A stretch of 64,000 bases of DNA, taken from Geosiphon pyriformis uo1. Its lineage: Eukaryota > Fungi > Glomeromycota. Location of the stretch: positions 811,518 through 875,517 of the forward strand of contig JAAOMT010000664.1 of assembly GCA_016748015.1 (NCBI GenBank), read 5' to 3'. Position 1 is the stretch's first letter. Each line of letters begins with the position of its first letter. Of the stretch, positions 7,408 through 45,732 are shown piece after piece. The notes under the pieces are model-generated. The model searched no databases. It worked only from the letters and a program-made list of their open reading frames with translations, and was not told where the DNA came from. Made by a program: the position numbers and the translations under genes.

Positions 7408-9127
7408 TGTTACAGATGAATATTTGGGGTCTCAAATCAAATAACAAACCTGTAACTTGGTGCTCAGTGACTAATCTGGTGGATGGTGTTGGTAATGTTA
7501 GTACAATGTTATTATCCAACAGTATAGTTTATCTGAAGGTTTAGTTGTTAAGTTCTTTGTATAATAGACAGAGATTCAATTGTTGTCTTTTTAGTAGCCT
7601 CCTGGAATCACAATTCCATTGTTACTCATAGAAATATAGGGAATATATATTAGCATAGTTATTAACCAATCAGAAATAGACATAGTAAAATGTGGAATTC
7701 CAGGATTCCTCTCAGGAATTGGAGAATTCCAGGAATTACAGGATTCTCACAAGGAATCACAGAATTTCAGAATTCCAGAATTCCTCTCAAAGGAATTGCA
7801 AGATTCTAGGAATCCCAGGATTTCTGTTGTGAAGAATTGAGGAATTGAGGAATCTCAATTATGTATATATAGCAATAGGATTAGAAGCTAAAAAAACAAA
7901 CCATCAAGTTTAGATTTCATCTAGACAACCTTCCAAACACAATAAATAACTATTTGGTATCTCAAACCTAATTCCACTATCAACACTCCATGTTGATAAT
8001 AATTGATACTTAAATACACTGGAACAATAGCTCTTGATCATGGCTATTGACGGAATACTAACTTGCAAAATTGCCTTGGCTTATTCATGATTTTCTTTTA
8101 TTTCTTTTATTTATTTTATTTTGATTTTATTGTTGTGCACTAATTGGTTGAATAAAGCACTAGATTACTGACATCAAGGATTGCCTGGTAAAAAACTCCT
8201 GTGAAAGAGTAGGACATGTACAGAAGATATGGAATACTTATCAGAAAATTGCCAGCCATCATGCCAAAAGAAGAATTGACAGAATTGCGATTCTGGAAAG
8301 CTACAGATAAAACAACTATTGAATCTCTGTTCATTATACAAAGAACTCAACCTGAAACCTTCAGATTACTATTAACTGCAACTAGATTTGAGCACCAAGT
8401 TACAGGTTTGTTATTTAATTCAACACCCCAAGTAATCACTTGTAATACTGTTGAATTTTTTTCTCAGTGTAGTAGCCAGTAATCTGACAGAGATGCCCTT
8501 CTGGTAAGCTATTCATTAATATATATAAACTCTATACTCTTCCTTTGGGGTCTTTTACCAAGCTATCCTTGACATTAATAACTCAGCGCTTAATCTTTAA
8601 TCAATTAGTAAAACAAAGAAATAGAAGAAAATAAAAGAAAATAAACAAAAGCAATTGCAATTGCAAGTTAGTATCCTGTTAATAGCTGTGATCAAGAGCT
8701 ATTGTTCCAGTGTGGTTAAGTATCAATTACTATCAACATGAAGCATTGATAGTGTAGAGTGGATTTGAGATGAAAAATAATTATTTATTGATATTTGTGA
8801 ATTGAAAGATTGCTTAGATGAAATCTAAGCTAAGAGGTCTATAGCTAAAAGATTCTGTCTTTTTTACTTTCAACACTACCACTATATATACATGATTTAG
8901 GTTCTATGAGATCGCTCACATTTTTGAACAATGTTCTATAATTTCTCAAGCAATGCTCACATTGCTGAATGATGTGTCATGATTTCTGACATTGCTCCAC
9001 ATTGTTGAGCAATGTGTTATGATTTTAATATTGCTTCATATTGTTGAACAATATGCTTATGTGCTAATTACTACTCTCTTATTGGTCTACTATTTTTTCT
9101 ATATCTGTTTTCTTTTTATGAGTAATA
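7408..9127 (-). mobile_element. B2 3' LTR, split by a solo LTR at 7620-8447
   Basis: 7408-7619 joined to 8452-9127 reconstructs the sequence of 17514-18396. Confidence 0.92.
7620..8447 (+). mobile_element. Solo family-B LTR (GAATTCC U3 subtype)
   Basis: TGTTACTC...TGTAATA termini, similar to 20524-21308. Flanks CCAT and CTGT are both explicable as a decayed CCGT TSD. Confidence 0.9.
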
Positions 9128-9141
9128 TTATCTTCTTCTTT

Positions 9142-9790
9142 TTAATATTGAGCTCTATCAAAATCTTTGTTTTGAATTAATTCTAATACTTTTTTTTTCA
9201 AGTATTGTTTGTTTGACTCTGTTTTTCATGTCTTCTACTTGTGTATTGTTCATTCTTCTTCATTGGTTAATGGTTATGGTTTCCATGTTAGAGTGTAACA
9301 GTATTTCTGAATAGTTCTAAAATATGTTGTGTAGTCAGTACATGATTTTAACATGTAGTGTTAAATTTGTCTTCTTTCTGATAAATTTTTCAATTTGTTG
9401 TATTATGTCTTGGTTGAATATTTTCTTGGATTTGTTAATATACAACTCCTAAATATTCAACTTTTGACCTAATTGGTAATAGCAATATGATATTAGAAGC
9501 CATTCTGTCTATTGCTTCCAATTTTTTTTTGTAAGCTCTTCTGTTGGTACCATAATAGGTATTTTTCCAAAAGTGTTCTTCACTTTTTCTATTAAGTTAT
9601 TTGTCCAGTTTTTATTATTCTTTGGTGGCCACTGATATGGTGTATTCTTTGTCTTTCTTTGGATATTTCAATAGCAAATTATTTGGTTGTTAATAACAAT
9701 TTCCATGTCTAACTGTTGTTGACTTAAGGCCTGGAACAATTGTTAAGCTATAGTGTAAATATGATCTGGTATTTCTATTTTTCTTGGTTG
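9142..9790 (-). pseudogene. B2 extra 3' ORF (ORF3), unknown function
   Basis: Lies between integrase and PPT. Translates as ...SYCYYQLGQKLNI...KIMY*LHNIF...DFDRAQY*. Confidence 0.65.
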
Positions 9791-9839: not shown

Positions 9840-12800
9840 GACGTGTTTGGTTCAATAACTATGATTGGTTCCAGATCTTGTGGAATCTCTTCTGGTTGAA
9901 CTAGTATTCTTTGTACTCTCAGTTGTGGAATGTTATTGGTGAATGATGATGTTATCTGGTAATATGGTTTCAGTCGATTACCATATGCTGCTTTGGCTAA
10001 GATTTTGTTGTCTCATCTTAATTTATAAGCTTTATTTCTTAGAATTTTTTCTATGTAAAATGGTCTGTCCCATTTGGAATTGAATTTTCCACTCCATTGT
10101 TTTTCTGTTTTGGTATGATGTAATAATACTTTGTCTTCAATCTTGAATTCAACTGGTTTATTTAGTAGTTGGTTATTGTGTCGTTTTTTTTGCTTTTCTT
10201 GTGACTTTTGGATGTTATTAGCTGCTTTTTGTCATTTGTTTTCTAGTGTTTTCATTAAGTCATATGTTTTTCTTAACAATATTTCTTGGAAATTATCTTC
10301 TGTTATTGGTTTAATTAGATATGTATTGATTTCTATTTCAACTGGTAATGTTGTTGTTTTACTGTATACCAATTCAAATAATGTTGTTTGTGTGGTATTT
10401 TGCTTTATTGTCTGATAAGCAAATAATACTGATGGTATAAACAAATCTCATTTGTCCTGGTTTTCTTGGCTAATTTTGGCTATTGCTTCATACAGTGTTC
10501 TATTAAATCTTTTAACTAAGCTATTCATTTGTAGATAGTATGGTAATGATAATGGTCTTTTAATTCCAAATCTTTGACTTAATTCTGTTAATGCTCTGTT
10601 CACAAAGTGGGTTCTTTGATCTGATAATAATTCTTTTGGACATCTGTGTTAACAGATCAAATCTTGATAAACAAATTTGACAACAGATTCTGCATTTGCT
10701 CTTTGAATGGCTTTTGCTTCCAGCCATTTTGTGAGATAGTTTATAGCTACTGCAATATATCTGTTGCCTCTACTAGTGATTGTTAATGGTCCGACTAAGT
10801 CAATTCTAATGCGATCAAATGGTTGTTCTACTTTGATTGGTCTTAATGGTTTACTGGATTTTGTTCTATCTTTTTTCTAACAAGCATCACAATTTTGAAT
10901 GTATTAGATAATATCTGGATACATTGATGACCAATAATATCTTTTTCTGGTTCTTTTTATGGTTGCTTCTTTGTGAAAGTGTTCTGCTGTTGGATCTGAG
11001 TGCATGTTAAATAATATTGTTTTTTTTTCTGGTTCTGTGATTACTTTGGTTGGTTGTTCTGGATTTCTTCTGTTCTTTCAGTAAAGTATATTTTGATGGT
11101 TGATAAAATATTTTGATTGTTGTTTTATGCTTCTTTGTTCCTGTTGAGATAATTTTTCTTTGAACAATTGGGTATTTATATAATGTTGAAGTTGTTGGTA
11201 TTTTTGGATATTCATCTTTTGTTATATTTTTTGGATTGAAATGTTTTTAAATTTGTCTTATTTGTGACAAACCATTGGCATTTCCATTGTCTTTTTTTTT
11301 TATAATGTACTGTATAATTAAATGGTAAAAGTTCTATTTTCCATCTGGCATGGCAATTATCTCCAAATTCTTGCTTCTGGATTGAAGTTAATTCTTTGTG
11401 ATCAGTGTATACATCAAACTTCTGACTTAAGTATTTTTTCTATTTGATGACAGTTCAATAGATAGCTAAGTGTTTCAGTGCTGGAGTTCCATAGTTTTTT
11501 TCCACTGGACTTAAGCTTCTACTGGCATAAGCTACTAGATGTTCTCTTCCATTTGGTCTTTTCTGTGATAGTACTGCTCCCAATGCTTGATCAGATGCAT
11601 CAGTTGTAATTATAAATGGCTTGCTATGATCTGGATACATCAATACTGGAGCTTGGATAAGCTTTCTTCTTAATGTGTTGAATGCTTTTTGTTGAGTTTT
11701 GGTTCATTTATATTTCACATTCTTGGTTTGTAGATGGTAAAGTGGCTGAGCCAATTTTGAAAAGTCTTTGATAAAGTGGCAATAATAGCCTGTGAATTCC
11801 AAAAATGCTCTTAGTTCTGTCAAGTTGGTTGGTACTGGAAAGTTTTTAACTACTTCAATCTTGTCTGAATCCGTTTTGATTCTATCTTTGCTCACCACAT
11901 GTCCCAAAAACTTGAGTTCAATTTTTCTAAAGAAACATTTGGTTGCATTTAGTTTCAATCTGGCTCTTTTTAATCTTTCAAACACTTGTTGGAGATAATA
12001 TAGATAATCATCGAATGTTTTTGAGAACACATTGGTGTCATTCAAGTATACAACTACTGATTTCCATAGTAATCTAGTATAGACAATTTTCATAAGCTGT
12101 AGGAATATTGCTGGTGCATTTATCAAGCCAAATAGCATGACTTTAAACTCAAAATTTCCCTCTTTTGTAGTAAATGCTGTTTTCTTCTTGTCAGCTGAGT
12201 TCATGGCTACTTGCCAGTAATCACTATCTAAATCTAGTGTTAAAAACTATTTATTTCCTCCAAAAGCATTAAATAATTCTTGGATCTTTGAAGTTAGATA
12301 ACTATCACTCTTAGTTACTCTATTCAGTTTTTGATAGTCCACACAAAAATAGATTTTCCCATTTTTCTTTTGAATTAGTACCACTGGTAATAACTATAGA
12401 TTTATTGATGGCTGAATTAGTTCATTGTCAAACATCCAATTGATTTCTTGATGAATGATCTCATGGCTAGCTGGTAATACTCTGTATGCTCTTTGTTTAA
12501 TTGGCATTGCATCTCCAGTCTTGATCTGATGCTGGATGATGTTGGTGTGGCCAAATTCATTTTTACTAGCAAAGATGTTATTAAAATTGCTGAGTAATAT
12601 CTTTAGTTGCATCTGTTAGAGTGGGTCCAGATTCCCCATGTTTATTTGTTCCAATTGTTCTGATTAGAACAGATAATATTCGCTTTGTCTATAGATAGTT
12701 TATGATGTAATATCTATATATCTGCAAAGCTATAGAAAATCTGGAATGTGGTTTAGTGGTTGATCCTTAACTTCGGTGGTTAAATATCCAATAATAGTTC

Positions 12801-15800
12801 TTTTTGGTATTTCAATAACACTTTCCATTGTGTTGTAGATGAGAATTTTAATGTTTTTGGGGCTTTTGGCTGATATGTAGAGATTAATAAGTCCAATCTC
12901 TCTTAATTTGCAAATAGTGGCTTCTGCTTCAAACAACTGAGCTTGATTTTTTACTTCTCTTTTTATGGCTAACATATACTGGTCATATGGTGGAATAAAA
13001 ATTGATTGACAGTTTAAGATAATTTCTCCTTTGTCAATAACCTCTTCCTCCACTATATTAACTGGTATATCTATTCTACCTGTGGATCCAAATTCCTGTA
13101 TCTTTTTTGCTATTATCCCTAATTCTTCCTTTTTTCCTATTAATACTAATTTAGCTATTTTAACCAGAGATAGAAATATTGCCTGTACTATTTTTTTATT
13201 TGGATCTATGGTATAGGCCTTTTCTGAATCATTTTGTAGCATAGCAATAATATTTCTTATATATCCTATGTCAATTATTCCTCCTCTGATGTTGATTCTC
13301 TTTTTTGCTAAACTACTCCTGAATGCTAGTTGCATTATTGTTGTTGCTGGAATTTCCAGTGCTATTTTCAGATCGATGCAAGTGTGCAAATGTGGTTCTA
13401 ATTTGATGGGATATTTCTCTGGATATCTCAGATCAAACTCTGCATCAGTATCATGCGTGTGTTCTGGCATAATACCTTTATTATTATCACTGAATTATTT
13501 GAGTTTTTGTTCCTTGGTGAAGTCAGGAAGTGCAATGTATGTTTTGGGGTTTGAATTAGAGTCCAAATTATTGTTATCTTTGTTGCCATATTGAGTGAAA
13601 CTGGAATCATTATTTTTGTTGTTATCATTGTCGGAGTTTGAATTAGGATTGAAAGTTGATTTCGATTCTAATGTGTAGCTGTTGATTGGTTCTTCTTCTT
13701 CTGGAATCATGTAAATTATGTGTGGTGGTAGATTGTAAATGAGGTCACACTCATTACAATATTGGAAGTTACATGGAATCAAACAGTGGTCACATAGTTG
13801 GGTGTTGATTTCTTCCAAGCATTGCTTCTGCTCTTCTCTTGTAGATGTTAGTTCTTGATAGTGTTTGTGGAATTGTTCTGGGTCCAAAAGATTTATGACC
13901 AGTTCTGGATCCCAGTCAAGTTCTATGGGTTCTGGTGGATTGTTTTTGATCGTTCTTATTTCTTCTGGTGATGTTTCTTTGATTTTGGTGATTACTATTC
14001 TTCATATCTCATTGTCATCATATGAACAACTGTTTAACTGCTGTATGGCTCTTTTTCAGGTGGTTTCTATTGGTGTCCCTTGTCTAACTCAGTCGCTGAT
14101 GAGAATTGTGTACTGGCACACAGTGTTGTACATTCTTCCTCGACCAAGAATATCATTCCATATTCCTTTGTCAAATAATGTTTTTCCTCAAGCTAGACAA
14201 GATTTGTTGTCCCATTTTCTTTGCCATTTTGAATGTCCAAAGTGTTCTATGATGCACACATGGCAGTAGAATTTGGTTACTGTTGAGTATTCCTCATTAT
14301 CACCACAGCACACATCTATTAATGACAATTTCTTGCCACAATTAACACATATAAGTTTTGGTTGACAATAGGTGGATTGTTGTGGAATAGTGTAGGTGTA
14401 GTCATTATAAGTAGTAGTCAGTGTTGAATCCTCTTCTTCCACTTTTCTTTTTTTTTTATCATTAGCTTTTTTTTCTTTCCACATTATTATTTTGTCTTGA
14501 TCATTGTCGGTTTTCCAGGTTTAGTTGGAATTTCAGGTAGGTTCTTCTTTCTGCTTTTCTTTGTTGTCATCCCAAGAAAGTATTGGCACCAACTTGTTGT
14601 GGTCTTCATCAGCCCAGGATACTTGATAGGCTTCCCAGGTAGGTTTTTTCTCTTCTTTCTTGAACTTGATAAGAGGTGCTGGCATATTGGTTGGCTTGAA
14701 ATAGTCACACATGGCTGGTACATGTGTGTGTTGACTGTTTTGGCTAAGTTGAAGCTTCTGCATCATCCAGTCCAGTATGACATTGGTCTTAAACAATCAG
14801 TCATTTTCTACTAATGCTTAATATTGAGTTGCTTCCATTACTAGAACTTTAATAGGAGTAATGATACCATTGACTTCAAAAGAGAAATCATCAATTTCAC
14901 CAATAAGGGCTTTGGTTGTCCCATCAGTGGTGATTATGTGAGCACTGGTAGCACAATTAACTCAGTGACCTAATTGATCCATGAGTTGTTGTGTAATAAT
15001 GCTACCAGCTGATCTGCTGTTTAGTATCAGTTTAATGGCATGACTATCAACCTTTGTGTCAGTGTACATGGCGATAATTGGTTTGGTGTCAAGAGCAGCT
15101 CCACTAAATAATGGGACTGTTGTGGTTTCCTCAAGTTCAAACAGGAAGATTGCTGCTAGTAATTTGTTGTTAGTAACAGTGGCTGGAAGTATGTTGTTGG
15201 TAAGTGATTGTTTTTGGTTGGTTTCTAGGTTGTTGGGTAAGGCATCTTCTAGAATAACCAAAAGACTTAAATAGTGTTAGGCATTCGGGTTTTGGGAGTT
15301 CTTGGTGCCCAAATTCTGTTGTCAAGATTCTAATGGTTGTGCCATAAAACTGGAGATTGGTTGATAGACCACTATCGATAATCTCCAGCTCTGTTGGGTC
15401 AATCTTGGTCTTTGGGTTCCATTTTGAGGTAAGTTTTGTGGTGGTGTTTGAATTTGTTGGGGCTGATAAATTATCTGAAGCTGCAGTTGATAAATGGGTT
15501 GGGGCTGCAGTTGATAACTGACAGGTGTTGGTGGCTGATAAATTGGCAGTTGATAGATTGGCTGTTGTGTTATAGGTAGGTAATTCAGTTAATACAGTTC
15601 TGGTAATTGATTACTAACATAATTCTGAGTTTGTAGTTGGTGATTGGGGTTTCAATACTAATGACCTGATCTTTGTTCATTTAGCCATTTACAGCATTCA
15701 AACTGTAAATGTCCTTGTTTACTACAATAGTGGCAAGCATACATCTCCTGCTGCCACTGTTGATTGGTTGACAATGATGGATGTGACTGATTCTGAAAAT

Positions 15801-17513: not shown

Positions 17514-18396
17514 TGTTACAGGTGAATATTTGGGGTCTCAAATCAAATAACAAATCTGTAACTTGGTACTCAGTGACTAATCTGGTGGATGGTGTTGGTA
17601 ATGTTAGTATGGTGTTATTATCTGACAATGTGGTTTATCTAAAGGTTTGTTTGTTGAGTTTTTTATATAATGGACAGAGATTCAATTGTTGTCTTTCTAA
17701 TAGCCTTCCAAAATCACAATTCCATTGAATTTTTTTTTCAGTGTAATGGCTGGTAATCTGGCAGAGATGCCCTTCTGGTAAGCTATTTGTTAATATATAT
17801 AAACCCTATACTCTTTCTTTGGAGTCTTTTATCAGGCTATCCTTGATGTCAATAACTCAGTGCTTAATCCTTAATTAATTAGTAAAACAAAGAAATAGAA
17901 GAAAATAAAAGAAAATAAACAAAAGCAATTACAAGTTAGTATTCTGTCAATAGTCATGATCAAGAGCTATTGTTCCAGCATGGTTAAGTATCAATTACTA
18001 TCAACATTTCATGTTGATAGTATAGAGTAGATTTGAGATGAAGAATAATTATTTATTGATATTTGTAAATTGAAAGGTTGCTTAGATGAAATCTAAGCTG
18101 AGAGGTCTGTAGTTAAAAGATTCTGTCTTTTCTACTTTCAATACTACCACTATATATACATGATTTGAGTTCTATGAGATCACTCATATTCTCAAGCAAT
18201 GTTCTATAATTTCTTAAGCAATGTTTATATTGTTAAGTGATGTGCCATGATTTTTGACATTGCTCCACATTGCTGAGCAATGTGCCATGATTTCTAACAT
18301 TGCTCTATATTGCTGAGCAATGTGCTTATGTGCTAACTACTACTCTCTTATTGATCTACTATTTTTTCTATATCTGTTTTCTTTTTATGAGTAACA
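17514..18396 (-). mobile_element. B2 5' LTR
   Basis: TGTTAC/GTAACA termini, U3 palindromic array at 18190-18326, adjacent PBS. Confidence 0.95.
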
Positions 18397-18400
18397 ATGG

Positions 18401-19860
18401 TTTGTTGTGAATAAGACAAATCTAAGAACATTTCAACTCAAAAATATAGCAAAACCAGAACAATACAACAAAAATATAACAAAAAATGAACATACAAAAA
18501 TATCAACAACTTTAACACTATAAATATCCAACAGTTCAAGAAGAAATTATTTCAAAATAAACAAAACAGCATCAAACAACAATCAAAATATTTTATTATT
18601 CACCAAAATATATTTTATTGAAAGAACAGAAAAAATCCAAATCAACCAACCAGAATAATTACAGAGCCAGAAAAAGAGACAATACTGTTCAATATGTACT
18701 TAAATCCAACAGCAAGACATTTCTATAAAGAAGCAATCATAGAAAAGACCAGAAAAAAATATTATTGGCCATCAATGTATCTAGACATCATTCAGTATGT
18801 TCAAAATTGTGATGTTTGTCAGAAAAGAAGAGGAACAAGACTCAACAAACTATTAAGACCAATTAAAGTAGGACAACCATTTGATCATATTGAAATTAAC
18901 TTAGTCGGACTATTAACAATCACCAGCAGAAGAAACAGATATATTGCAGTAGTCATGAACTATCTTACTAAATGGCCAGAGGCAAAAGCAATTCAAAGAG
19001 TGGATGCAGAATCCATTGCTGAATTTGTTCATCAAGATTTAATTTGTTGACATGAATGTCCAAAAAAACTGCTATCCAACCAAAGAACTTATTTTGTAAA
19101 TAGAACATTAGCAGAATTAAGTCAAAGATTTGGAATTAAAAGACCATTATCATTACCATATTATCCACAAACCAATGGATTAGTCAAAAGATTTAACAGA
19201 ACATTGTGTAAAGCAATAGCAAAAATCAGCCAGGAAAGCCAAGACAAATAAGATTTGGTTATACCATTAGTATTATTCACTTATCGAACAATGAAGCAAG
19301 ATACTACACAAGCAATACTATTTGAATTAGTATATAGTAAAACAGCAATATTACCAGTTGAAATAGAGGTCAACACATATTTAACTGAACCAATAACAGA
19401 AGAGAATTTCCAAGAAACTTTATTGAGAAAAACATATAACCTAATAAAAACTCTAGAAAACAAATGGCAAAGAATAGCTAATAATATACAACAGTCACAA
19501 GAGAAACAGAAAAAAAGACATGATAACCAATTACCAAATAAACCAGTTGAATTCAGGATTAGAGACAAAATACTTCTACATTATACCAAAATAAAAAAAC
19601 AATGGAGTAGAAAATTTGACCGTAAATGGGATGGACCATTTCACATAGAAAAATTTTTAGGAAATAGAGCTTATAAATTAAGATGAAACAACAAAATCTT
19701 AACCAAAGCAGCACATGGTGATTGATTGAAACAATATCACTATATAGTATCATTATCCACCAATAATATTCTACAACTGGAAGTATAACAAATACTAGTT
19801 CAATCAGATGAGATTCTATGAGATCTAAAACCAATTATAATTATTGACACCAACACATCA
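18401..19860 (+). pseudogene. B1 integrase pseudogene
   Basis: H...YYWP...CDVCQ zinc region, YLTKWPEAKAI, QTNGLVKRFNRTL, KWDGPF (GPY/F) motif. No chromodomain. Confidence 0.92.
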
Positions 19861-19899
19861 AATTAATTGACCAAAGAAATATATAAAGACATGGTAGAC

Positions 19900-20510
19900 A
19901 TGACAAAAAACATCAGAAAAATAGAAATTACCAATGACATTTACTCATTAGCACAACAACTGTTTCAACTAATTCAACAATAAAACATGGAAATTACAAT
20001 TAACCAACAAACTATCAAATATAAAGATACCAGGAAATTACAACAATATAAAATACAAAAGCAACCGGAAAACACTGTTGATAAAATAATCACAAAAGTA
20101 AAATCAGCAATAAACATTTAAACAAAAGTTACACCAGACCAAGCATTAACCAAAGAAACTTTTGTTACTTCCACTTGGGACAACATCTGAATATCCAGAA
20201 CTTATACACAGATAAGACAAAATGGTTATTTGATACAACAATATTACAACAACTGGAACAATTTGTGGAAAAGAATAATCTAAAAACATATGTGCAAGTC
20301 ATTTATCAATTATACACCAGATTTTAAGACTGACCAGAAATTCTACTCAACTTAGCAATGAACACTGTCACTGTTAACCAAATAAAAAAAATAACCAATG
20401 CACAATTTGAAGAATTACTAACCAAAATAACACAAATAATTCTCAAAAAAGAAGTTCAAAAATTAATCCAAGAGAGAAATCTAAGAAATTTTATAAGAGC
20501 TCAATATTAA
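19900..20510 (+). pseudogene. B1 extra 3' ORF (ORF3), unknown function
   Basis: IYSLAQQLFQLIQQ...TFCYFHLGQHLNIQNLY...VQVIYQLYTRF...NFIRAQY*, ending at the PPT. Confidence 0.65.
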
Positions 20511-20523
20511 AAGGAAAAAATAA

Positions 20524-21308
20524 TGTTACTCATAGAATATAAAAAGTATATATTAGCATATAAATTAGACAATCAGAAGTAGATGTAGTAAAAAGTAGAA
20601 TTCCAAAATTCCTCTCAAAGGAATTGCAGAATTCCAGGAATTACAAGATTCTTATAGGAGGAATCGCAAAATTCTAGAATTCCAGAATTCCTGGTATAAA
20701 AAATTGAGGAATTGAGGAATTTCAATTATATATATATAGTGGTAGTATTAGAAACAGAAAAAACAGACCTCTCTATTTAGATTTAATCTAAGCAATCTTC
20801 TCCATCACAAATATCAATAAATAACTATTTGTTATCTCAATTTATTTTTTGTTATCAACACTTCATGTTAATAATAATCTATACTTGACCACACTGGAAC
20901 AATAGCTTTTGATTATGGCTATTGACAGGATACTAACTTGCAAATTGCTTTGGCTTATTTTTTTATTTCTTTTATTTTCTTTGTTTTGATTTTATTGTTG
21001 TGTACTAATTGATTAAAGATAAAGCACTGAATTACTGACATCAAGGATTGTCTGGTAAAAGATCCTGCGAGTGGGTAAAACATGTAAAAGGAATTACGGA
21101 TTATTTACCAAAAGATTGCCAGCCATCAAGCTGAAGAAAAAAATTGACAGAATTGTGATTCTGGGAAGCTATAGATAACAACACTATTAAATCTCTGTCT
21201 ATTATACAAAAAACTCAACCTTTAGATTATCATCAACATAAATAGCTTTTGAACACCAAGTTATGGGTTTGTTATTTGATTTGAGACCCCAAATAATCAC
21301 TTATAACA
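20524..21308 (+). mobile_element. B1 3' LTR (GAATTCC U3 subtype)
   Basis: PPT at 20509-20523, TGTTACTC...TATAACA termini, repeat array at 20595-20725. Confidence 0.92.
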
Positions 21309-21399: not shown

Positions 21400-22214
21400 G
21401 CAGAAGTATTACTTGTTTTTTTCCAGCTTGAACATTGTATATAAGTTCTGAATATTCAAGTATTATTCTAAGTGAAAGTAACAAAAGTTTCTTGGAAATT
21501 GTTGTGTTCACCAATTTCATGTTTCTATCATCAATTCTGAATATTGGGTAACTTTTGACTGTGTTTCTATCGCTAATTTTACCTTTGTGATTATTTTTTC
21601 AATAGTGTTTTTTGTTTTTTTCTGTATTTTATCTCATAGTTTCTTTTTGGTATTTCTGTATTTGATAGTTTGTTGATTAATTGTAATTTCCATTTCCTGT
21701 TGTTGAATTAGTTGAAAGAGTTGTTGTGCTAGTAAGTAGATGTCATCAATAATTTCCATTTTTCTGTTGTCTTTTGTTGTATCTATTATGTCTTTATATT
21801 TTTTTTGTTGTTCAATTTGACATGTTGATGGCAATGATAATAATTGGTTCTAAATTTTGTGGAATTTTATCTGGTTGAACTAGTATTCTTTGTACTCTTA
21901 ATTCTGGAATATTATTGGTAGATGATGATGCTATCTTGTAATATGGTTTCAGTCAATTACTATGTGCTGCTTTGGCTAAGATTTTGTTGTTTCATTTTAA
22001 TTTATAAGCTCTATTTCCAAGAATTTTTTCTATGTGAAATGGTTTGTCTCATTTGGGGTCAAATTTTCTACTTCATTGTTTTTTCACTTTGGTACGATAT
22101 AAAAGTACTTTGTCTTCAATCTTGAATTCAACTGGTTTATCTGATAGTTGATTATTGTGTCTTTTTTTTTGTTTTTTTTGTAATTTTTAAATGTTATCAG
22201 CTGCTCTTTATTAT
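21400..22214 (-). pseudogene. Fragment of the outermost family-B element B0 (integrase C-terminus plus ORF3 N-terminal half)
   Basis: Reverse-complement homolog of about 19480-20210 (KILAKAAH..., MEIIDDIYLLAQQLFQL). Cut on both sides by LTR ends. Confidence 0.85.
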
Positions 22215-23103
22215 TGTTACTCATAAAAAGAAAACAGATATAGAAAAATAGTAGACCAATAGTAAAGTAGTAGTTAGCACATAAGCACATTGCTCAACAA
22301 TGTAGAGCAATATCAAGAAATTATGACACATTGCTCAGCAATGTGAAGCAATATCAGAAATCATGGCACATTGCTCAGCAATATGGAGTGATGTTAGAAA
22401 ATTAGAACATATTGCTCAGCAATATGAGCATTGCTCAAGAAATTATAGCACATCACTTGGGAATGTAAGCAATTTTATAGAACATTAATTATGTATATAT
22501 AGTGGTAACATTAGAAGAAAAAAAGACAGATCTCTCAGTTTAGATTTGATCTAAGCAAACTTTCTATCCACAACTATCAAATAATTATTCACTATTTTAA
22601 TCCATTTTCTACTATTAACACTTCATGTTAATAGTAATTGATACTTAATCACACTAGAACAATAGCTTTTAATCACGGCTATTGATAAAATACTAATATT
22701 TATTTGCCTTGGCTTATTTTTTATCTCTTTCTTTTCTTTTATCTTCTTTTCTTTTGTCATTTCATTTGTTTTATTAACTTGATTAAAAGAATTCATATGT
22801 GGAGGTACTGACATCAAGATATAGTACTGGTAAAAGACCCAGAAATAAGAGTAAACACTCAGAATTGAGGATATCTTACCAGGAGGATTACTGGCCATCA
22901 TGCTGAAAAAAAAATTGACAAAACTGTGGTTTCAGAAAACTATAAATAAAACAATCAATTAAATCTCTGTTCATTATACAAAAAACTCCACTAAGACCTT
23001 CAGATATAAACAACATACCAGTATTACCAATATCATTAAGATATTGAGCATCAAGTTACAGATTTGTTATTTGACTTAAGACCCCAAATAATTATTTGTA
23101 ACA
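22215..23103 (+). mobile_element. 5' LTR of family-B element B3 (CACATTGCTCAGCAATGTG subtype)
   Basis: TGTTACTC...TGTAACA termini, followed by PBS TGGTGCTCC at 23106. Confidence 0.93.
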
Positions 23104-26100: not shown

Positions 26101-26829
26101 AGCTTGAATTGTGTCCAATAAAGATTACTGAACATGAACCCACTATTACTGCAAGCTATGCCACAGAGAATGGTATGGCTACCCAAAATAACAAGACAAG
26201 TGGGACAACAAATTATGTCTTACTTGTGAAAAACAATTACTTGATGAAGAAATATGAAATGACATTTTTGGATGAGGAGAAACATATAACACTTTATGCC
26301 AGTACATAATCCTTATTAGTGATTGGGTAAGTTGTGGGATTCCTATTACTACAGCCTGGCACTAAGCAATCTCTTATTTGGACAGTTACTCACATGACAA
26401 GAATGAGATCTGGCAAATGGTGAATGCCAAAGTCAAAGGAACTATGCCTAGTGAAATATTGGAAATCAAAAATAATTCTCCAGAACCAGTTAACATTATT
26501 CTCATTTCAAACTCTGATGTTTTTTTTGACATAGAAACTGATTTAAAAGAGTTTCACGAGCACTATTAGAATTTAGCACCCACAAGAGAAGAGCAGAAAC
26601 AGCATTTAAAAAAAATAAACACTTAATTATGTGACTACTGTTTGATTCCATGTGACTTCCAGTATTGTAATGAGTATGACTTTATTAACAATCCATTACC
26701 ACACATAATCTACATCATTCCAGAGAAAGACAAACCAATCAACTGCTGTGTATCAAAATCAGAATCAACTTTCAATCTTGATTTAAATTCCAACAACAAA
26801 AATAACAAAAACAATGGTTCTAGCTCCGC
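23166..26829 (+). pseudogene. gag: B3 gag-protease-Cys-rich pseudogene, continuing at 45733-45868 after element D
   Basis: AESEIIGTNHL start, CHNCGKQGHLRIDC knuckle, LILNSGSAGS protease, Cys-rich region. NNGSSSA|QYGNEN rejoins across D. Confidence 0.9.
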
Positions 26830-27805
26830 TGTTACCAAAGGTTTTTGGTCTTTTTTCTTGAATGTTGTTATTGTTGATTTGCTGTGAATTCACATTCTCA
26901 GGAAGTAGTTGAATTTATTTTCAAATTATCTTCTATAATTTAAACTACTGGACTTATAAGTAAAATAGCCAATTCCATATCAGTTGCTTGTATATAGTTA
27001 CATTGTAGTAAATATCAACTCTTTCCCAGAAATTGCCCATCTGGAAGCTTACTAATATGTATAGTTACTTTGCTGTAAAAGTCAACTCTTTTACAGGAAT
27101 CTCATCTGTAAGCTACTCTAATAATTTTGATAAAAAAGAGAAAAGAAAATAAAAAAAATGTAAAAGAAATAGAATTTTATCAAGAAAAACGTTTTTTATC
27201 CAGGCCTGAAGTCATTAACAGTTTATTGAAATTGGTAGCTAATCAATTTCAAAATGTTAGTTGTGTTGAGGGAATTTCAAATATAATAATTTAAGGATTT
27301 GGTTTTCGAATATTTAATTTTTATTTGAATATATAAAAGATGAATTGTTTTAATTAAGATATCTAAAGTAGGATGCTATGGTAAAATACTATAAGAAGAT
27401 ACATTTTCTTGAAAAGAAAAGCTCTTCTTTTATACAACTTGTTGTAGTATTAGTCTTTGAACTTGCACTTTTCTCTTTGCTACAATTTGGGTGAACTAAA
27501 GATACATTTTGGTAAACTACAAATTATTTTACTAAACTATTGATTATTTCGGCAAATTTTCATTAATTTCGGCGAATTTTCATTAATTTCGGTGAATTTT
27601 GACTATGTTAAATAGTTCAGAGTATTGTGTAATTTGATCATCTTAATTTTTAGAGTACAAATCAGATTATTGGTTGAGTAATGATATTTGATAATTTGAC
27701 TAAATAATAAGTGATAATCAAAATAATAATAATGTATGCTAATTAATAATAGAAATTATAAGAGTAATTTCATGCTAATTAATAGCTAAAATTCTACTGG
27801 TAACA
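26830..27805 (-). mobile_element. D 3' LTR (family A)
   Basis: TGTTACC...GGTAACA termini, highly similar to 44757-45728, PPT adjacent. Confidence 0.95.
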
Positions 27806-27816
27806 TAATTTCCTCC

Positions 27817-28420
27817 TCAAGACTGAGCTTTGTCAAAGTCCAAGCACTATCTGTGATATTAAGATAGTGGTCCAAGATAATTAAAGTGATCTGGTTTGAA
27901 AATTGTTGAAATTTCAGTTCTGTGAGCTTTCCAATATATTGAATTTTTATTGGATAGAATATTGGATTTTGTAGGACGTTTTCACAAGTATTAAATAAAT
28001 CATAAAGTCTAAATACTGCTCTAAGTTTGTAACGAGTGTTTGTTGATTCAGCTGCTGTTTTGAATTTATTGTGAATTTGTTTTTATATAGTCTCAGAAAT
28101 AATGTTGGTTGCTTTAAGTTCTAGTTTCCGTTTATAAAATGTTTTTCCAATATAAAAATATCTATATATAAGAATATATTTATTGTTCTGTTTATTAAAA
28201 AATAATAGAAGTTTTTGTTGAATTGTGCTATTTGGTAGAATGTTAATAGGAGCAGATAAAAGATTTTTTTTAGTGCTTGCTTCAAAAGTTTTGGTAATTG
28301 ATTTTCAGAGTAATCGCTTGTTTTTTTTCTATAGAGGTAATAGTTTTGAGAATTATTTACTATTGGGACTGTGGTTTTTTTCTGAATTTAGTTAATTTGG
28401 CTTCCATTAATCATTATGAA
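27817..28420 (-). pseudogene. D extra 3' ORF (ORF3), unknown function
   Basis: YRYFYIGKTFYKRKLEL...LRAVFRLYDLF...IQYIGKLTELKFQQF, with terminal DFDKAQS* abutting the PPT. Confidence 0.65.
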
Positions 28421-28972
28421 TAAGTCAAGAAGTATTTTCAAGACTAATATTAGTTTTTGGGATATTTGTTAAATATTTTGGGGAATAATTATAATAAAAT
28501 TGATTAATTGGTAAAGAAATTTTGAAAAAAAATAAAGAAAATTATTTTTGGGTATAGGGTTTTTATTTGTTTTTGGGTTTGAGTATTTTTGTAATTACTA
28601 TTTTTATTTTTATGTTTGTGTATTTTAAAAGAGATTATTATAAAAATGTTAAATTAAGTATTCAAGTTTGGTTGTTGTTCTATTATAACTATTGGTTCTA
28701 AATTTCAAAGAATATCTTTAGGGTTGATTAAAGAAGAATGTTGTTATGGGATGGTTTTCTTGTTATATTTAATTGCTGATATCCCGCTTTAATTGCAATC
28801 AGTCTTTCGTGAATTCCTTAGTTCTATTTGTGTGATAATGTCACTGTTACACTGAAGGCTTTCTTTTTACTGTTGTGATGTAAGTTATTCTTTAATTCTT
28901 GATTGTTGTGTGTGTTTATGTACTCCCTCTCAGAGGCTGAACTGAAATCTACCCACTGTCTGGGGTCTTCTC

Positions 28973-29216
28973 NNNNNNNNNNNNNNNNNNNNNNNNNNNN
29001 NNNNNNNNNNNNNNNNNNNNNNNNNNNNNNNNNNNNNNNNNNNNNNNNNNNNNNNNNNNNNNNNNNNNNNNNNNNNNNNNNNNNNNNNNNNNNNNNNNNN
29101 NNNNNNNNNNNNNNNNNNNNNNNNNNNNNNNNNNNNNNNNNNNNNNNNNNNNNNNNNNNNNNNNNNNNNNNNNNNNNNNNNNNNNNNNNNNNNNNNNNNN
29201 NNNNNNNNNNNNNNNN
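28973..29216. other. Assembly gap (N run) inside the C 3' LTR
   Basis: Run of n. Confidence 1.
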
Positions 29217-29375
29217 CTATATTATGATTGAATAGTTTGTATTATTTTTATGATTCTTTTTGCTAAATTCTTAAACCATAACATTATCTCCTCCTTTCAA
29301 GATTGAGCTCCGTCAAAATCGAAGTTAATTTCTTCATTAAATTCTAAGTTACTATAGTGGTTCAATACTGTGTTA

Positions 29376-30641
29376 TTAATTTGTTGAAGTGAGTTCACAG
29401 TAGAGGGCGATTTCTGGGAAATTTAGAATTTCTTGTGGTGTTGACGCGTTTTCTAGCTCCGTTCCGAAGTATCCAATGATGGTATCTTCCAGAATGTAGA
29501 CGGGTTCTTCTGTGGTGTTTGCGATAGGAATTTTTATCCATTGAGCTTTATCAACTGGAATAAAAAGGTTAGTAAGTCCTATGAGAAACTGTTGGCAAGT
29601 TTCTGGGTAGGGCTCAATTATTAGGTTTTTTTCTTTAATTGTCCTTTTTATTCTTATTTCTGATTTTCCATATGATAGGAGCGTGATGGACCGCTCAATT
29701 TTTATTATTTCGCCTTTTTCCTCTATTGTTTCAGCAAAATTTGCTTCAATTCCTTTTCCTGTCGATCCGAAACCAAAAGTTCCTCTCATTGTTTGTGACA
29801 ATTCCTCACAATTTTCTACTGGCACGAATTTCCCAATTTTTACCAATGATAGGAAAATTGCTTGTGCAATCTTTTCCTTAGATTCAATGATATAAGGCTT
29901 TTCTGAATTGTTCTGTAGCAAAACCATCAAATTTCCAGTGTATCTGGAGTCAATTACTCCTCCTTGAACGCTTATTCCTTTTTTTGCAAGGCTTGATCGC
30001 GACGCCATTTGAACCATTATTCCTGGCGGAATTTCAACCGCTATTTTTAGGTCGATTTTGGTAATACTCCTGGGTGGTAATGTTGTGGATTGGTCTTCTG
30101 GATAACGTAGATCGAATCCGGCGTCGGTTGGATGGGCTCTTTTGGGTATTATTCCTAAGTGCCTGTTGTCGAAGTATCGGATGTCGGTCACCTGTTCTAG
30201 GTCGGTATAGGCTACAAATTTTTCTGACTCGGGACCGTCAGGTGAGTCTTGTTGATTTATTGATTGATTTTGAGACTGCTGATTCTCAATTTCCATTTTT
30301 CTTTCTAAGTCCCTTTCGTCTTGACACTCTTCACAGCACTGACTTTGGCACGGGATGAGACAGTTTTTGCAGAGGTAAGTGTTAATTTGGGCGAGGTATT
30401 GTTCTTGCTCTTGTCGAGTGGGGCATAGTTGTTGGTAGTAGTCCTGGAATTTGTCCACTGGGTCAAACATGTTGTAGCTGGCGACTTCGTTGGCTACTTT
30501 GGCTGACTCTTTCCAACGTCGTATTTCTTTGGCGGTTCCTCCTCTTATTTTGGCTTGTGTGGTGTTGTACAACTCGTCCTCGTCGTGTGAATAGTGCTGT
30601 AGTCTTTTTAACGCTCTGTTGAATGCTGCTTCGAATGGCAT
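29376..30641 (-). CDS. dut: Retrotransposon dUTPase-containing ORF of element C (end of Cys-rich domain, dUTPase, beta-rich spacer)
   Basis: All five trimeric dUTPase motifs present: AGFDL, RSSLA, GVIDSRYTG, KIAQAI, RGTFGFGSTG. It is part of the gag-pro polyprotein frame, separated by nonsense mutations. Confidence 0.9.
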   Translation of the reverse strand: MPFEAAFNRALKRLQHYSHDEDELYNTTQAKIRGGTAKEIRRWKESAKVANEVASYNMFDPVDKFQDYYQQLCPTRQEQEQYLAQINTYLCKNCLIPCQSQCCEECQDERDLERKMEIENQQSQNQSINQQDSPDGPESEKFVAYTDLEQVTDIRYFDNRHLGIIPKRAHPTDAGFDLRYPEDQSTTLPPRSITKIDLKIAVEIPPGIMVQMASRSSLAKKGISVQGGVIDSRYTGNLMVLLQNNSEKPYIIESKEKIAQAIFLSLVKIGKFVPVENCEELSQTMRGTFGFGSTGKGIEANFAETIEEKGEIIKIERSITLLSYGKSEIRIKRTIKEKNLIIEPYPETCQQFLIGLTNLFIPVDKAQWIKIPIANTTEEPVYILEDTIIGYFGTELENASTPQEILNFPEIALYCELTSTN

Positions 30642-31097
30642 TCCTCCTCTTACCCAGTTACAGATGAGGATCGTGTATTGGCAAGTTGCGTCACATGTTC
30701 CTTCTCTGCCTGGTAAGTCGTTCCAGTCACACCCTCTTGGTAACGGTTCTCCACAAACAAGGCACGGTTCCTCGTCCTATTTTCTGTGTCTTTCTGGGTA
30801 ACCGTATTTTTTTTTGTTACAACGGTTACAATAGTAGTGGGTGGGGTTTCTTGGGTCTTCATCCGGTGCGCTGCACGCAGTCATAGACAAGAGTTTCTTC
30901 TTGCAAACTGAGCATTCTAGCTTTGGTCTGCGTCGCTGGTGGTTTCTTCGTGAACTTACCTGGTTCCATTCGGATCTTTCTTTGCTGGTCTACGTTGGTA
31001 CAGCTGGTAGTCCTGTTCTTTGGTCATCAGCCCAAGAGAGCTGATAGGTTTCGATGGCTGGTAGTGCTGGATTTTCTTCAAATTCGAAAGTAGGTCT

Positions 31098-33446
31098 TTA
31101 GTTGGCGCTGGGTTTTTGGAAGTGGCCACAGGTGGCTGGAATTTTGGCCTGGTGGCCATTATAATTGATCAGAAGCTCTTGGGTGATCCAGTCTAGGGTG
31201 GCGTTGGCTTTTGTTAGCCAGTCATTCCCTACTAACACTTGATATTGTGTAGCGTCCATTACTAATACTTTTGTAGGTATTACTATGCCGTTAATTTCGA
31301 AAGGGAATGAGTCGATTTCGCCATAAGGCAGCTTTGTACTTCCATCGGCTGTTATGATTTGGGACGTCGTGGCACGATCAACTTTGAAACCCAGTTGGTT
31401 TACTAGTTGAAGTGTTACAATGCTTCCAGCGGATCTACTGTCTAAGATAAGTTTGATTGGGGTATTGTTTACAGTGGCTTCCATATACATAGCAGTGATT
31501 GGGCGTTTTTTGTTCAATGCTGCTCCACTGAACATAGCCTCGTTTTCCTCTAATTCAAAAGGAAAAATAGCTGCGAGGCTGCTATCTTCAGTGGCAACTG
31601 CTGGTGGTATTGTCTGGCTCAATTTGGAGGAATTTTTGGTTCTGTTTATGTTTCTACCGTTATTGTTTTCGATGATCAGGTTTTCCGGTATATTAAGGTA
31701 AGTTTGTTGATAATTTTGGTAGTTTGGATTGGTTTGCTGATTGGTTCCGGCGCGGTTTGGATTCCTTTGGACCAACGCATTCTGGTTCCACATGGGCTGA
31801 TTTCGGGCCTCAGGACGCCAATTCGGGTTGGCTATCATGGGCTGTTGCTGGTAAGCTCCTTGATTTTGATATGTAGTGGGATATTGGCGTGGTATTGGCG
31901 TGTACTGGTTTCTGGGCATTTGGGGTGGCGCGTAGTAATTATTTTTGCGTGCTTCCTGCATCATTCGCGTTTGACATTGACTAATCAAATGTCCTACGCG
32001 TTCGCAAAAATGGCAGGCGCGTGTTTCTGTTCTGAATTCCTGGCGCGACGAGCGATTATTTCGACTGTTGCTGACTTCCTGGCTGCGTCTTTGGGGTGGT
32101 TGGTATGTATTTTTTCTCGGATCCGGGATGAGGTAACTTTCTATTTTCTTAGAGAGTTCCTCCCCTAATTGCGTTACTCTTTTTTCTAATGTTTCTGTCT
32201 TATTTTCCTCCATTACCATGTTAACCATTTGACTATGGTTAGCTTCTTTCTCAGCCGATTCAAGGGCTCTGGCGAGTGTAACAACTTCTGGTAAGAAATT
32301 AGGGTGGACAGGGCATACTCTTCCTAAAATGCTGCTTTTTAATCCTCTAATAAACTGATTTAAAACTTGAGGATCAGTGTAGTATCCTTGTTCAATCACT
32401 TCAATCTGACGGCAAATTCGATTGAATCGAGCAAGGTATTGGGTAACAGTTTCACCGGTATTTTGCTTGATAGTATTGAATTCGTTCTGTAATTGGATTA
32501 CGGCGTTTGGATCGCTAAAATACTCCAGGAGTGCATTTTTAAATTCGGCAAAGCTCGTGGGTTTTGTTTCTAGGCTTTGATACCACAAGTCGGCTGTGCC
32601 TTTCAGGAAGAAAGGTAATGTTTGAATTGCTCTTTGGTCATTCCAGTTATTTGCCTGGATGGCTTTTTGTGCTTCTCTGAGCCATGTGTGCACGTCCATT
32701 TCTTCTTCCTCTCCTGAGAAATCTGTTAGTCTTGCAATGTATGGTGTGGTCATTTCATTGCCATTTTCTGCTAGTGGGTTTATTGGTCTAAGAGAAGATG
32801 GGATGATATTTCCTTGAGCGTTCCTAAAGGTGGCTTCCCTTATATCTGGTTCTTCCTCTTGATCATGAGTTTCTTGGTTTCTGAACTGGCTGCTTGTTCC
32901 AGTGACTGGTCTTGTGATTGTTTTTTCGCTGGTCTCTTTTTCGGATTCCGATTCAGACTCCTCTTCACGGTTTTCAAACCCCGTTCTAAATTTTGGCTGA
33001 AAAAGAGGGTTTTGGAATAGTAATGAATATCCTCCTGTAATTGGTATGTCTCCCCAGTTATGTTGTTTAATTTTATCAATATAACTAGGAGTTCTTGGCG
33101 TTTGTGGAGTTGATGTTGATGATGATGCAGCTCCTAATGGAATTTGTATCTTATTTTCTGGTAAAAAATGGTATGATTTATCTTCTGGTGAATAAATACG
33201 TTGTTTCTTTATTGATTGAGTGACAGTTTTCTTTGGCATTTGAGCTGGTGTTCCTAGTTTTTGCTGGTTACTTTTCTGATTAGTTTCTAAATTTTCTTTG
33301 GTTTTGTTGGCGCGTTCCCTAGTGTTTCCTGTGGATATTGGAAAATTTTCGTTGGCATATTGCTCAATTTCTCGATGGATTTTGACAATAGTTGCGGCTA
33401 TTACTGCTACTTCTTTTGTAGTGTATTGTGATAATTCTCTATACAA
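31098..33446 (-). CDS. gag: Element C Gag-aspartic protease polyprotein (N-terminus disrupted by the A2 insertion)
   Basis: 782-aa ORF with a retrotransposon gag domain (LQNEFNTIKQ...ETVTQY...QFIRGL), CHFCERVGHLISQC knuckle and LILDSRSAGS (DSG changed to DSR). The frame extends to 33591 and to 36800-36840. Confidence 0.9.
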   Translation of the reverse strand: MYRELSQYTTKEVAVIAATIVKIHREIEQYANENFPISTGNTRERANKTKENLETNQKSNQQKLGTPAQMPKKTVTQSIKKQRIYSPEDKSYHFLPENKIQIPLGAASSSTSTPQTPRTPSYIDKIKQHNWGDIPITGGYSLLFQNPLFQPKFRTGFENREEESESESEKETSEKTITRPVTGTSSQFRNQETHDQEEEPDIREATFRNAQGNIIPSSLRPINPLAENGNEMTTPYIARLTDFSGEEEEMDVHTWLREAQKAIQANNWNDQRAIQTLPFFLKGTADLWYQSLETKPTSFAEFKNALLEYFSDPNAVIQLQNEFNTIKQNTGETVTQYLARFNRICRQIEVIEQGYYTDPQVLNQFIRGLKSSILGRVCPVHPNFLPEVVTLARALESAEKEANHSQMVNMVMEENKTETLEKRVTQLGEELSKKIESYLIPDPRKNTYQPPQRRSQEVSNSRNNRSSRQEFRTETRACHFCERVGHLISQCQTRMMQEARKNNYYAPPQMPRNQYTPIPRQYPTTYQNQGAYQQQPMIANPNWRPEARNQPMWNQNALVQRNPNRAGTNQQTNPNYQNYQQTYLNIPENLIIENNNGRNINRTKNSSKLSQTIPPAVATEDSSLAAIFPFELEENEAMFSGAALNKKRPITAMYMEATVNNTPIKLILDSRSAGSIVTLQLVNQLGFKVDRATTSQIITADGSTKLPYGEIDSFPFEINGIVIPTKVLVMDATQYQVLVGNDWLTKANATLDWITQELLINYNGHQAKIPATCGHFQKPSAN

Positions 33447-34289
33447 TCCAAGTTTTGCGTCGTGTGGTTCTTCTTCCTTTCCTATATGATAATTTATTCT
33501 GGCATTGATATAATAAGTGAGGGCAGATTCTGCTGGACAACACCCTTCTGGTAATCCAAGATCACTTTGATTTTGTGTGTAAATAGCACGGTGTTACCGG
33601 AGGTTTTTGGTCTCTTTTCTTGAAGGTTGTGGTGTTGTTTTGCTGTTTTATTCACGACTAGAGGAAGTAGTTGAACCTTCGATAACTGAATTTATCTTCA
33701 AATTATCTCCTATAATTTGAACCGCTGGGCTTATAAGTGGAATGGCCAATTCCGTGCCAGTTACTTTATGTAGTTACGTTGTAGTAAACGTCAACTCTTT
33801 CCCAGGAATTGCTCGTCTGGAAGCTCACTAAAAATGTGTAGTTACTTTGCTGTGAAAGTCAACTCTTCTACAGGAATCTCGTCTGTAGGCTACCTAAATG
33901 ATTATGATAAGAAAAGAAAGAGAAAAATAAAAGAAACGTAAAGAAATAGAATTTTGTCAAGGAAACGTTTTCTATCCAGGCCTGGAGTCATTAACAGATT
34001 ACTGAAATTGGTAGCTAATCAATTTCAAAATGTTAGTTGTGTTTGAGAGAATTTCAAGTGTAATAATCAAAGGATTTGGTTTTCGAATATTTAATTTTTA
34101 TTTGAGATATGTAAAAAGTGATTTGTTCTAATTAAGATACCTAAAGTAAGATACTATGGTAAGATATGAGAAGATACATTTTCTTGAAGAGAGAAGCTCT
34201 TCTTTTATACAACTTGTTGTAGTACTAGTCTTTGAACTTGCACTTTTTCTCTTTTCTAGAATTTCGGTGAACTAAAAATACATTTCGGC

Positions 34290-34469
34290 NNNNNNNNNNN
34301 NNNNNNNNNNNNNNNNNNNNNNNNNNNNNNNNNNNNNNNNNNNNNNNNNNNNNNNNNNNNNNNNNNNNNNNNNNNNNNNNNNNNNNNNNNNNNNNNNNNN
34401 NNNNNNNNNNNNNNNNNNNNNNNNNNNNNNNNNNNNNNNNNNNNNNNNNNNNNNNNNNNNNNNNNNNNN
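34290..34469. other. Assembly gap (N run)
   Basis: Run of n. Confidence 1.
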
Positions 34470-36034: not shown

Positions 36035-36157
36035 TTCTTCGTTTTCAAGGTCTTCTGGTTCTTCCTGTTCTGATTCAGTTCCTTCGCTTTCTAGGTTCTC
36101 AGAATGATTACTTTGATTCTCTTGTAAGTAATCAAGAAGGTTGGTGCTAGTTGATAT

Positions 36158-36427
36158 NNNNNNNNNNNNNNNNNNNNNNNNNNNNNNNNNNNNNNNNNNN
36201 NNNNNNNNNNNNNNNNNNNNNNNNNNNNNNNNNNNNNNNNNNNNNNNNNNNNNNNNNNNNNNNNNNNNNNNNNNNNNNNNNNNNNNNNNNNNNNNNNNNN
36301 NNNNNNNNNNNNNNNNNNNNNNNNNNNNNNNNNNNNNNNNNNNNNNNNNNNNNNNNNNNNNNNNNNNNNNNNNNNNNNNNNNNNNNNNNNNNNNNNNNNN
36401 NNNNNNNNNNNNNNNNNNNNNNNNNNN
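36158..36427. other. Assembly gap (N run)
   Basis: Run of n. Confidence 1.
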
Positions 36428-36903
36428 AAGCTCTTCTTTTATACAACTTGTTGTAGTACTAGTCTTTGAACTTGCACTTTTTCTCTTTTCTAGAATTTCG
36501 GTGAACTAAAAATACATTTCGGCGAACTACAAGTTATTTCGCTGAACTATGAATTATTTCGGCCAATTTTCATTAATTTCGGCGAATTTTGGCTATGTTA
36601 TATGGTTCAGGGTATTGTGTAAATTGATCATCTCAATTTCTATGGTCCAAATCGGGTTATTGATTAAATGATGATAATTGTTAATTTGATTAAATAATAA
36701 GTGAAATTCGAAATGATAATAATATATGCTAATTAATGATAGGAATTATAAAGGAAATTTCATGCTAATTAATAGCTAAAATTCTACTGGTAACAACGGC
36801 AGAATTCAAGAACAGTAAGATTAGGGGTTTTTGTCACCACTTTTGTCTTTTCCTTTTTAGCAATGAATTATTGCTAATTATTATTTCCTTTTTGATTTTC
36901 TTT

Positions 36904-44711: not shown

Positions 44712-44738
44712 TTTGAAATTATTATTGCTGTGTTATTT

Positions 44739-44754
44739 CCATGGGAGAGCACCA
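44739..44754 (-). promoter_or_regulatory. Primer-binding site of D
   Basis: Minus strand TGGTGCTCTCCCATGG next to the 5' LTR. Confidence 0.8.
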
Positions 44755-44756
44755 AA

Positions 44757-45728: not shown

Positions 45729-45732
45729 CTGC

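Follow-up and report, generated by a model that had tools for sequence, protein, structure and literature searches.

Results

ORF3 copies in a nest of Ty3/Gypsy elements

The 64,000-nt stretch of the Geosiphon pyriformis genome analyzed here (contig JAAOMT010000664.1, positions 811,518-875,517; hereafter, the window) holds a nest of decayed Ty3/Gypsy retrotransposons. These were recognized by Pfam matches to gag, protease, dUTPase, and Integrase_H2C2, a long terminal repeat (LTR) pair that is 88% identical, a TGG primer binding site (PBS), a polypurine tract (PPT), and the order gag-protease-(reverse transcriptase [RT]-RNase H)-integrase, in which the placement of RT-RNase H before integrase was read from translations. 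This report concerns ORF3, an open reading frame (ORF) between integrase and the PPT, and its relationship to the neighboring unique 3' (U3) region of the LTR. A preliminary description had assigned a ~200-codon ORF to each element with an intact 3' internal region. A decayed frame matching intact database proteins of ~200-235 aa was indeed found there in elements B1, B2, and D, where it runs ~200-230 codons after integrase; however, none of the four copies (B1, B2, B0, D) is open, and B0 has a half-length frame.

ORF3 of B1 (19921-20510, + strand) is a dead copy of the B1 clade with four stops and a frameshifting deletion of ~10 codons at ~20157; its identity to most gene models of the B1 clade is 66-73%. 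The deletion recurs in a 213-nt contig from run X1 that is identical to B1 over 19994-20206, and the peptide TFCYFHLG quoted earlier from B1 proved to span two frames around it. The B2 copy (9142-9778, - strand), also dead, has internal stops and is 77% identical to gene model P0004. B0 contains only the 5' half of a B1-clade ORF3 (21420-21759, - strand, lower end approximate), and since B0 is an element fragment without its own PPT or LTR, it yields no ORF3-U3 pair. The D-type copy (27786-28470, - strand, upper end approximate) is 68-82% identical to D-type gene models. It overlaps the PPT and the first LTR bases and ends in LEEEIMLPVEF, so that the terminal FxxAQx pattern said to be general occurs in B1 and B2 but not in D. 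In the D, G, and H types alike, the PPT and the first bases of the LTR encode the ORF3 C-terminus, LEEEIMLP (window 27786-27820; 3100-3148 of contig L001).

The coding frame has fewer stops than the two other sense frames in all six pieces compared (five of ORF3 and one integrase control); in the C-terminal half of B1 ORF3, for example, it has 2 stops vs. 12 and 5. We regard the gene as almost certainly real. It is a sense additional ORF (aORF-3S), i.e., sense-oriented, between pol and the 3' LTR, and common to many copies. We rejected the possibility that it is a C-terminal extension of integrase, since the two share a frame in B1 and not in B0, ORF3 begins at its own Met in intact models, and a 315-nt spacer intervenes in L001. 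A TATA-like TATATAAAG (19880-19888, + strand), set in an AT-rich context ~40 nt upstream of the B1 ORF3 Met position and present in B2 as well (9820-9812), is a candidate internal promoter.

The ORF3 protein family

A profile built from the window copies recovered 340 proteins at E<=0.001, and 121 were found when 1.84 billion representatives were searched exhaustively. By type, 232 ORF3 proteins comprised B1 (106), D (95), E (14), B2 (11), F (4), G (1), and H (1), with identities of 25-43% between types and 62-76% inside the B1 clade. Among the matches listed, all 120 ORF3 homologs were from G. pyriformis, as were eight of 10 divergent proteins looked up, the other two (G and H) being metagenomic. 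The H-type gene lies in L001 between integrase and PPT and starts at its own Met after the 315-nt spacer.

As the preliminary description had it, ORF3 lacks a signal or transmembrane segment: no such hydrophobic stretch occurred in nine of nine homologs (maximum 19-residue Kyte-Doolittle mean, 0.27-1.29). The protein is predicted to be mostly helical with a confident fold model, a basic linker follows the N-terminal domain, some types are acidic, and two end in acidic tails. Transversions between ORF3 types were enriched at third positions (58/139, P = 0.024; 40/80, P = 0.0015); a stricter test of 4-fold vs. 0-fold sites was not significant in any of four comparisons. No significant family was found in Pfam, PHROGs, NCBIfam, or PDB sequences, and the best PDB sequence match, importin-5 (E = 0.027), was taken as chance. 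Likewise, tblastn against phages gave no match, no relatives were found in viral contigs, and Foldseek against PDB and BFVD returned nothing at E<=0.001. The ESM Atlas had nothing for P0007; for P0174 it gave a Mucoromycota cluster (0.94; recognition under the threshold of the tool), which we treat as a lead only. Literature searches returned no description of the gene; they did not cover the paper on the G. pyriformis genome or its supplementary material, where it may be mentioned.

ORF3 and U3 diverge as one block

The B1 and B2 ORF3s had been described as far more diverged than their pol genes, and this was borne out: amino acid identity is 72% in the C-terminal half of integrase vs. 44% in the ORF3 core, and transversions number 31 in 1350 nt of integrase vs. 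91 in 450 nt of ORF3 (Fisher P = 6e-33). ORF3 was less conserved than integrase in six of six pairs (21-44% vs. 46-72%). The U3 regions of B1 and B2 differ by 24-29% transversions, compared to 8% past the TATA box. Their arrays are of different types, as also claimed, with 19-29% transversions between GAATTCC- and CACATTG-type U3s, 2-12% within a type, and 5-13% in post-TATA parts. The step in B1/B2 divergence begins at ~19830-19970, so that the diverged sequence is a single uninterrupted block of ORF3 plus U3. Such a sharp step fits the alternative that the preliminary description had itself named, in which ORF3 and U3 are co-inherited as a linked block. Together, these results support the view of ORF3 as a conserved accessory gene for a soluble, non-envelope protein, one that changes along with U3 even where integrases remain similar.

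Three complete ORF3-U3 pairs occur in the window, each of a different type. In B1, the PPT (20509-20523, + strand) precedes a 3' LTR (20524-21306, + strand) with a GAATTCC-type U3 array of ~40-bp repeats (20596-20725) and a TATA box at ~20727-20739. B2 has CACATTG-type U3s in its 5' LTR (17514-18394, - strand), which was delimited by self-alignment and carries the palindrome ACATTGC-TCA-GCAATGT, and at 8914-9061 of its 3' LTR (7408-9127, - strand; 88% identical to the 5' LTR), which is interrupted by a solo LTR. The 3' LTR of D (26827-27805, - strand; self-alignment) bears a 20-bp U3 array of TTCGCCGAA at 27546-27600, and thus a third ORF3 with a third motif exists, as had been noted. With only three pairs, one per type, the window cannot show co-variation beyond linkage.

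Tandem U3 arrays are family-specific (GAATTCC, CACATTG, TTCGCCGAA, F, and TTGCCCT), and dyads are their building blocks (ACATTGC-TCA-GCAATGT, AAATTCG-C-CGAAATT, GGAATT-GCAG-AATTCC, and, in L001, TTTGCCCTAGTGCAAA). We counted 33 dyads in nine U3 regions vs. 7.0 expected and 9 in six control regions vs. 9.4 expected, although enrichment was significant singly in only four of the nine, and these regions cannot be counted as independent samples. L001 has five copies of TTGCCCT, three of them in U3 and two in the spacer that precedes ORF3; U3 and spacer share nine 8-mers vs. 0.85 expected (P = 0.002) with no collinear duplication. A duplicated U3 was rejected as the source of the spacer (alignment score 45 vs. 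a shuffled mean of 46.6).

ORF3 type and U3 type beyond the window

Pairing evidence outside the window came from gene models that read from ORF3 into U3, of which there were five among 232. Three B1a models (P0217, P0218, and P0219) read into a GAATTCC U3, P0195 (D) reads weakly into a D array (E = 2e-4), and P0190 (B1b) reads into a CACATTG U3. In addition, the last 12 codons of an ORF3 that is B1b-like by length and sequence (821-859) are fused to a dUTPase fragment and followed by a PPT and a CACATTG-type LTR (872-1763; whole feature 821-1763, + strand). The translated CACATTG array, used as a query, matched only P0190 and P0237, and P0237 has no ORF3. The run X1 contigs belong to a very large repeat family, and the pieces are too short to tie ORF3 type to U3 type.

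Subtypes B1a, D, and H were concordant with their own arrays, whereas B1b, B1c, and B2 were discordant, the discordance resting on one spliced gene model (P0190), which could bridge nested elements, and one 12-codon tail. Window B1 (GAATTCC) and P0190 (CACATTG) are 65% identical, while P0190 and window B2, both CACATTG, are 45% identical. B1b and B1c models have an identical predicted helix after GKNN and B2 has a different one; the same predicted recognition-helix sequence goes with GAATTCC (window B1; P0217-P0219) and with CACATTG (P0190; the 821-859 tail). From these comparisons, array type scales neither with ORF3 divergence nor with the predicted recognition helix. A 63-column ORF3 tree with weak forks permits a single motif switch from GAATTCC (B1a, B1c) to CACATTG (B1b, B2). 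The repeat/unique 5' (R/U5) subtypes also mix, in that B1a models enter post-TATA sequences most similar to those of L1 or C, although the copies of these two in the window are of the CACATTG type; recombination at the RNA 3' end would probably give such mixing.

Discussion

A possible LTR regulator

The most likely mechanism, which we advance tentatively, is that ORF3 is a DNA-binding LTR regulator acting in trans and that its pairing with U3 comes mainly from inheriting one linked 3' block. The protein would be produced from a start of its own, possibly via an internal promoter, with a ParB-like helix-turn-helix formed by its central helices; as a dimer it would then recognize dyads in U3 and switch transcription in the manner of foamy-virus Tas. 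ORF3, PPT, and U3 adjoin one another at the 3' end of the RNA, and template switching would therefore shift them jointly against pol and R/U5; rarer crossovers at the PPT would re-pair ORF3 with another U3, which would leave specificity less tight than a single protein for each array. The hints of DNA binding are weak but converging: both fold searches repeatedly returned DNA-binding domains of the ParB family, the U3 arrays are palindromic, and the L001 motif lies upstream of ORF3. Of the earlier proposal that ORF3 is a DNA-binding protein co-evolving with its own array, the first part retains these hints, and one-to-one pairing is not supported by B1b, B1c, and B2.

By profile, hhalign gave ORF3 0.2% against 30 ParB cores, the same as a reversed control, and 0.1% against SopB. 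Compared to the helix-turn-helix of ParB, Spo0J, KorB, and SopB, Z, rmsd, and profile scores were not significant, and ORF3 is without the CTPase domain. A U3 motif upstream of ORF3 was present in one of four elements (L001) and absent in B1, B2, and D. Host factors binding U3 boxes, as in Tnt1, would also explain palindromic U3 arrays. Scores were likewise not significant for DUF1016_N, the N-terminal domain of YhcG (14.6 bits for P0123 vs. a cut-off of 32.8; hhalign 1.0% against 70 YhcG N-domains).

Known systems offer partial analogies. The gene for Tas (Bel1) lies 3' in the foamy virus genome. Tas is small, binds the LTR and an internal promoter, and is species-specific, with protein and response elements poorly conserved (PMC7390438). 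It is the best working analogy for the putative regulator, L001 having its motif in U3 and again ahead of ORF3, although no homology was found, and ORF3 belongs to a Ty3/Gypsy retrotransposon of a fungus. VANC of the Arabidopsis VANDAL transposons resembles ORF3 in being element-encoded and more variable than the transposition enzyme, with family-differing tandem arrays in a methylating host (PMC5735166). However, VANC belongs to DNA transposons and has DUF1985 and DUF287 domains (PMC5735166), neither of which was found in Pfam scans of 10 and 6 ORF3 proteins (E up to 10 and 1, respectively) or among the 25 families shown for 72 ORF3 members, and strict cognate pairing is not supported by B1b, B1c, and B2. 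In Tnt1, subfamilies are likewise regulated differently via U3 boxes, but these bind host defense-induced factors, and the available part of that account mentions no extra gene beside U3 (PMC3316501). Sense aORFs described so far are env-like with membrane segments or encode enzymes such as a GDSL esterase or DEDDy exonuclease (PMC7264820; PMC5408684). ORF3 shares their position, orientation, and presence in most copies of a family (PMC7264820), and bdelloid lineages likewise combine dUTPase with varied ORF3s (PMC5408684). Unlike them, the fungal ORF3 is soluble, helical, without a Pfam, PHROG, NCBIfam, or PDB sequence family match, and neither env-like nor enzymatic.

Alternative roles

The rather unlikely alternative of a role at the RNA level, in which ORF3 would serve export, packaging, or the suppression of RNA silencing in the way of Rev or Cer1 CERV, with U3 arrays serving as host-factor enhancers and co-variation arising by linkage only, requires no protein-DNA match to account for the linked block and its re-pairing. 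It is consistent with the basic linker, with the persistence of CACATTG LTRs on a deletion derivative without a whole ORF3, and with the precedents of Tnt1 BII boxes, which bind host factors (PMC3316501), and CERV (PMC10309623). The recurring ParB-type domains and the U3 motif in the L001 spacer argue against it. Strict lock-and-key recognition, by which each ORF3 type would recognize its own U3 array and both would co-evolve (as a VANC-like anti-silencer or family-specific transactivator), gains from the finding that no well-sampled subtype was seen with two arrays (B1a-GAATTCC in 3/3 gene models; the D array in the window and P0195; H-TTGCCCT), from a short-region tree compatible with one motif switch, its key forks being weak, and from the host CpG methylation implied below. 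Nevertheless, we find it doubtful, since B1b and B1c share a helix with different arrays, B2 has another helix with the array of B1b, identity is higher across arrays than within CACATTG, and no VANC domains were found.

A role through protein contacts, such as integration targeting, particle assembly, or blocking of a host defense protein, with fast divergence reflecting host conflict, would suit the faster divergence of ORF3 than integrase in all six pairs and its mostly helical, in some types acidic, nature. No evidence of a partner was found and the L001 motif sharing would be left unexplained, making this role improbable. Despite its env position, ORF3 is hardly credible as an envelope-like protein or chance open frame, both being contradicted by hydropathy and fold: nine of nine homologs are without a transmembrane or signal-like stretch, and the frame is conserved across seven types with a confident fold. 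As for the regulator itself, its boldest version, in which these complex retrotransposons would encode a sequence-specific transcription factor (a dimer with a ParB-like helix-turn-helix) acting on palindromic U3 and internal-promoter operators, with recognition helix and operators diversified into at least seven orthogonal switch pairs as the fungal counterpart of foamy-virus Tas or plant VANC, seems quite unlikely.

The function of most additional ORFs of LTR retrotransposons is unknown (PMC7264820). LTR elements make up ~41% of the G. pyriformis genome (PMC11952901), and since most carry ORF3, the gene bears on element expansion in a methylating host. Because the family includes intact proteins, has a confident fold model, and offers short palindromes as candidate sites, the question of a self-encoded DNA-binding regulator is directly testable, and if the pairs were orthogonal, they would supply new protein-operator parts.

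Other features of the window

The decayed B1 integrase (18490-19866, + strand, start approximate) matches Pfam Integrase_H2C2 (E = 8.8e-15), with SH3_Tf2-1 under the cut-off, and from the junction translation seems to begin at its own Met past the RNase H stop. In four of four elements examined, the RT-RNase H frame ends right past the last RNase H motif and integrase apparently has a separate start (junctions at ~18440-18490 in B1, ~11270 in B2, ~39000-39100 in a D-type element, and 772-799 in L001, with an integrase ATG in B1 and L001), an arrangement that stops in dead copies could mimic. A separate integrase ORF is unusual for Ty3/Gypsy. A dUTPase lies between protease and RT at 29376-30776 and 12730-13494 (Pfam E = 2.9e-27).

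By self-alignment, B2 is bounded by an RNase H end (7407) on one side and by the B1 integrase on the other. The solo LTR in its 3' LTR (7620-8448, + strand) has a GAATTCC-type U3 and is flanked by TCCAT (7615-7619) and CTGTT (8449-8453), possibly a target duplication altered by CpG decay. Element C has a 5' LTR with a CACATTG-type U3 (22217-23103, + strand), its ORF3 lying outside the window. An F-family LTR with a 23-bp U3 repeat (36923-37788, - strand), into whose post-TATA part F-type ORF3 gene models read, has copies at 60451-61337 and 28742-28972 (94-97% identical, different PBS), and the insertion of an LTR of this family separates integrase from ORF3 in a D-type element. The deletion derivative at 583-1763 joins a dUTPase fragment to the 12 ORF3 codons, PPT, and CACATTG LTR, and a 27-bp tandem repeat (418-595) with Asn/Ser-rich coding lies upstream of the dUTPase fragment. 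Many run X1 contigs cover either side of the derivative, but an amplified non-autonomous family is only hinted at, since no piece among those listed bridges the 820 junction with 31 letters on each side.

The observed/expected ratio of CpG is 0.05-0.17 over 1-28000, which suggests past methylation; methylation of transposable elements has been reported for Rhizophagus irregularis (10.1101/2021.03.30.436303). CpG is largely kept (0.64-0.99) at 28000-36500 and 44000-56000, i.e., in younger, gap-flanked D-type pieces and the Dicer region. The three N gaps are at 28973-29216, 34290-34469, and 36158-36427. A host Dicer gene (52445-55990, - strand) with helicase C, Dicer dimer, PAZ, and two RNase III domains adjoins the transposon nest, and the final 57000-64000 is very AT-rich (GC 12-24%).
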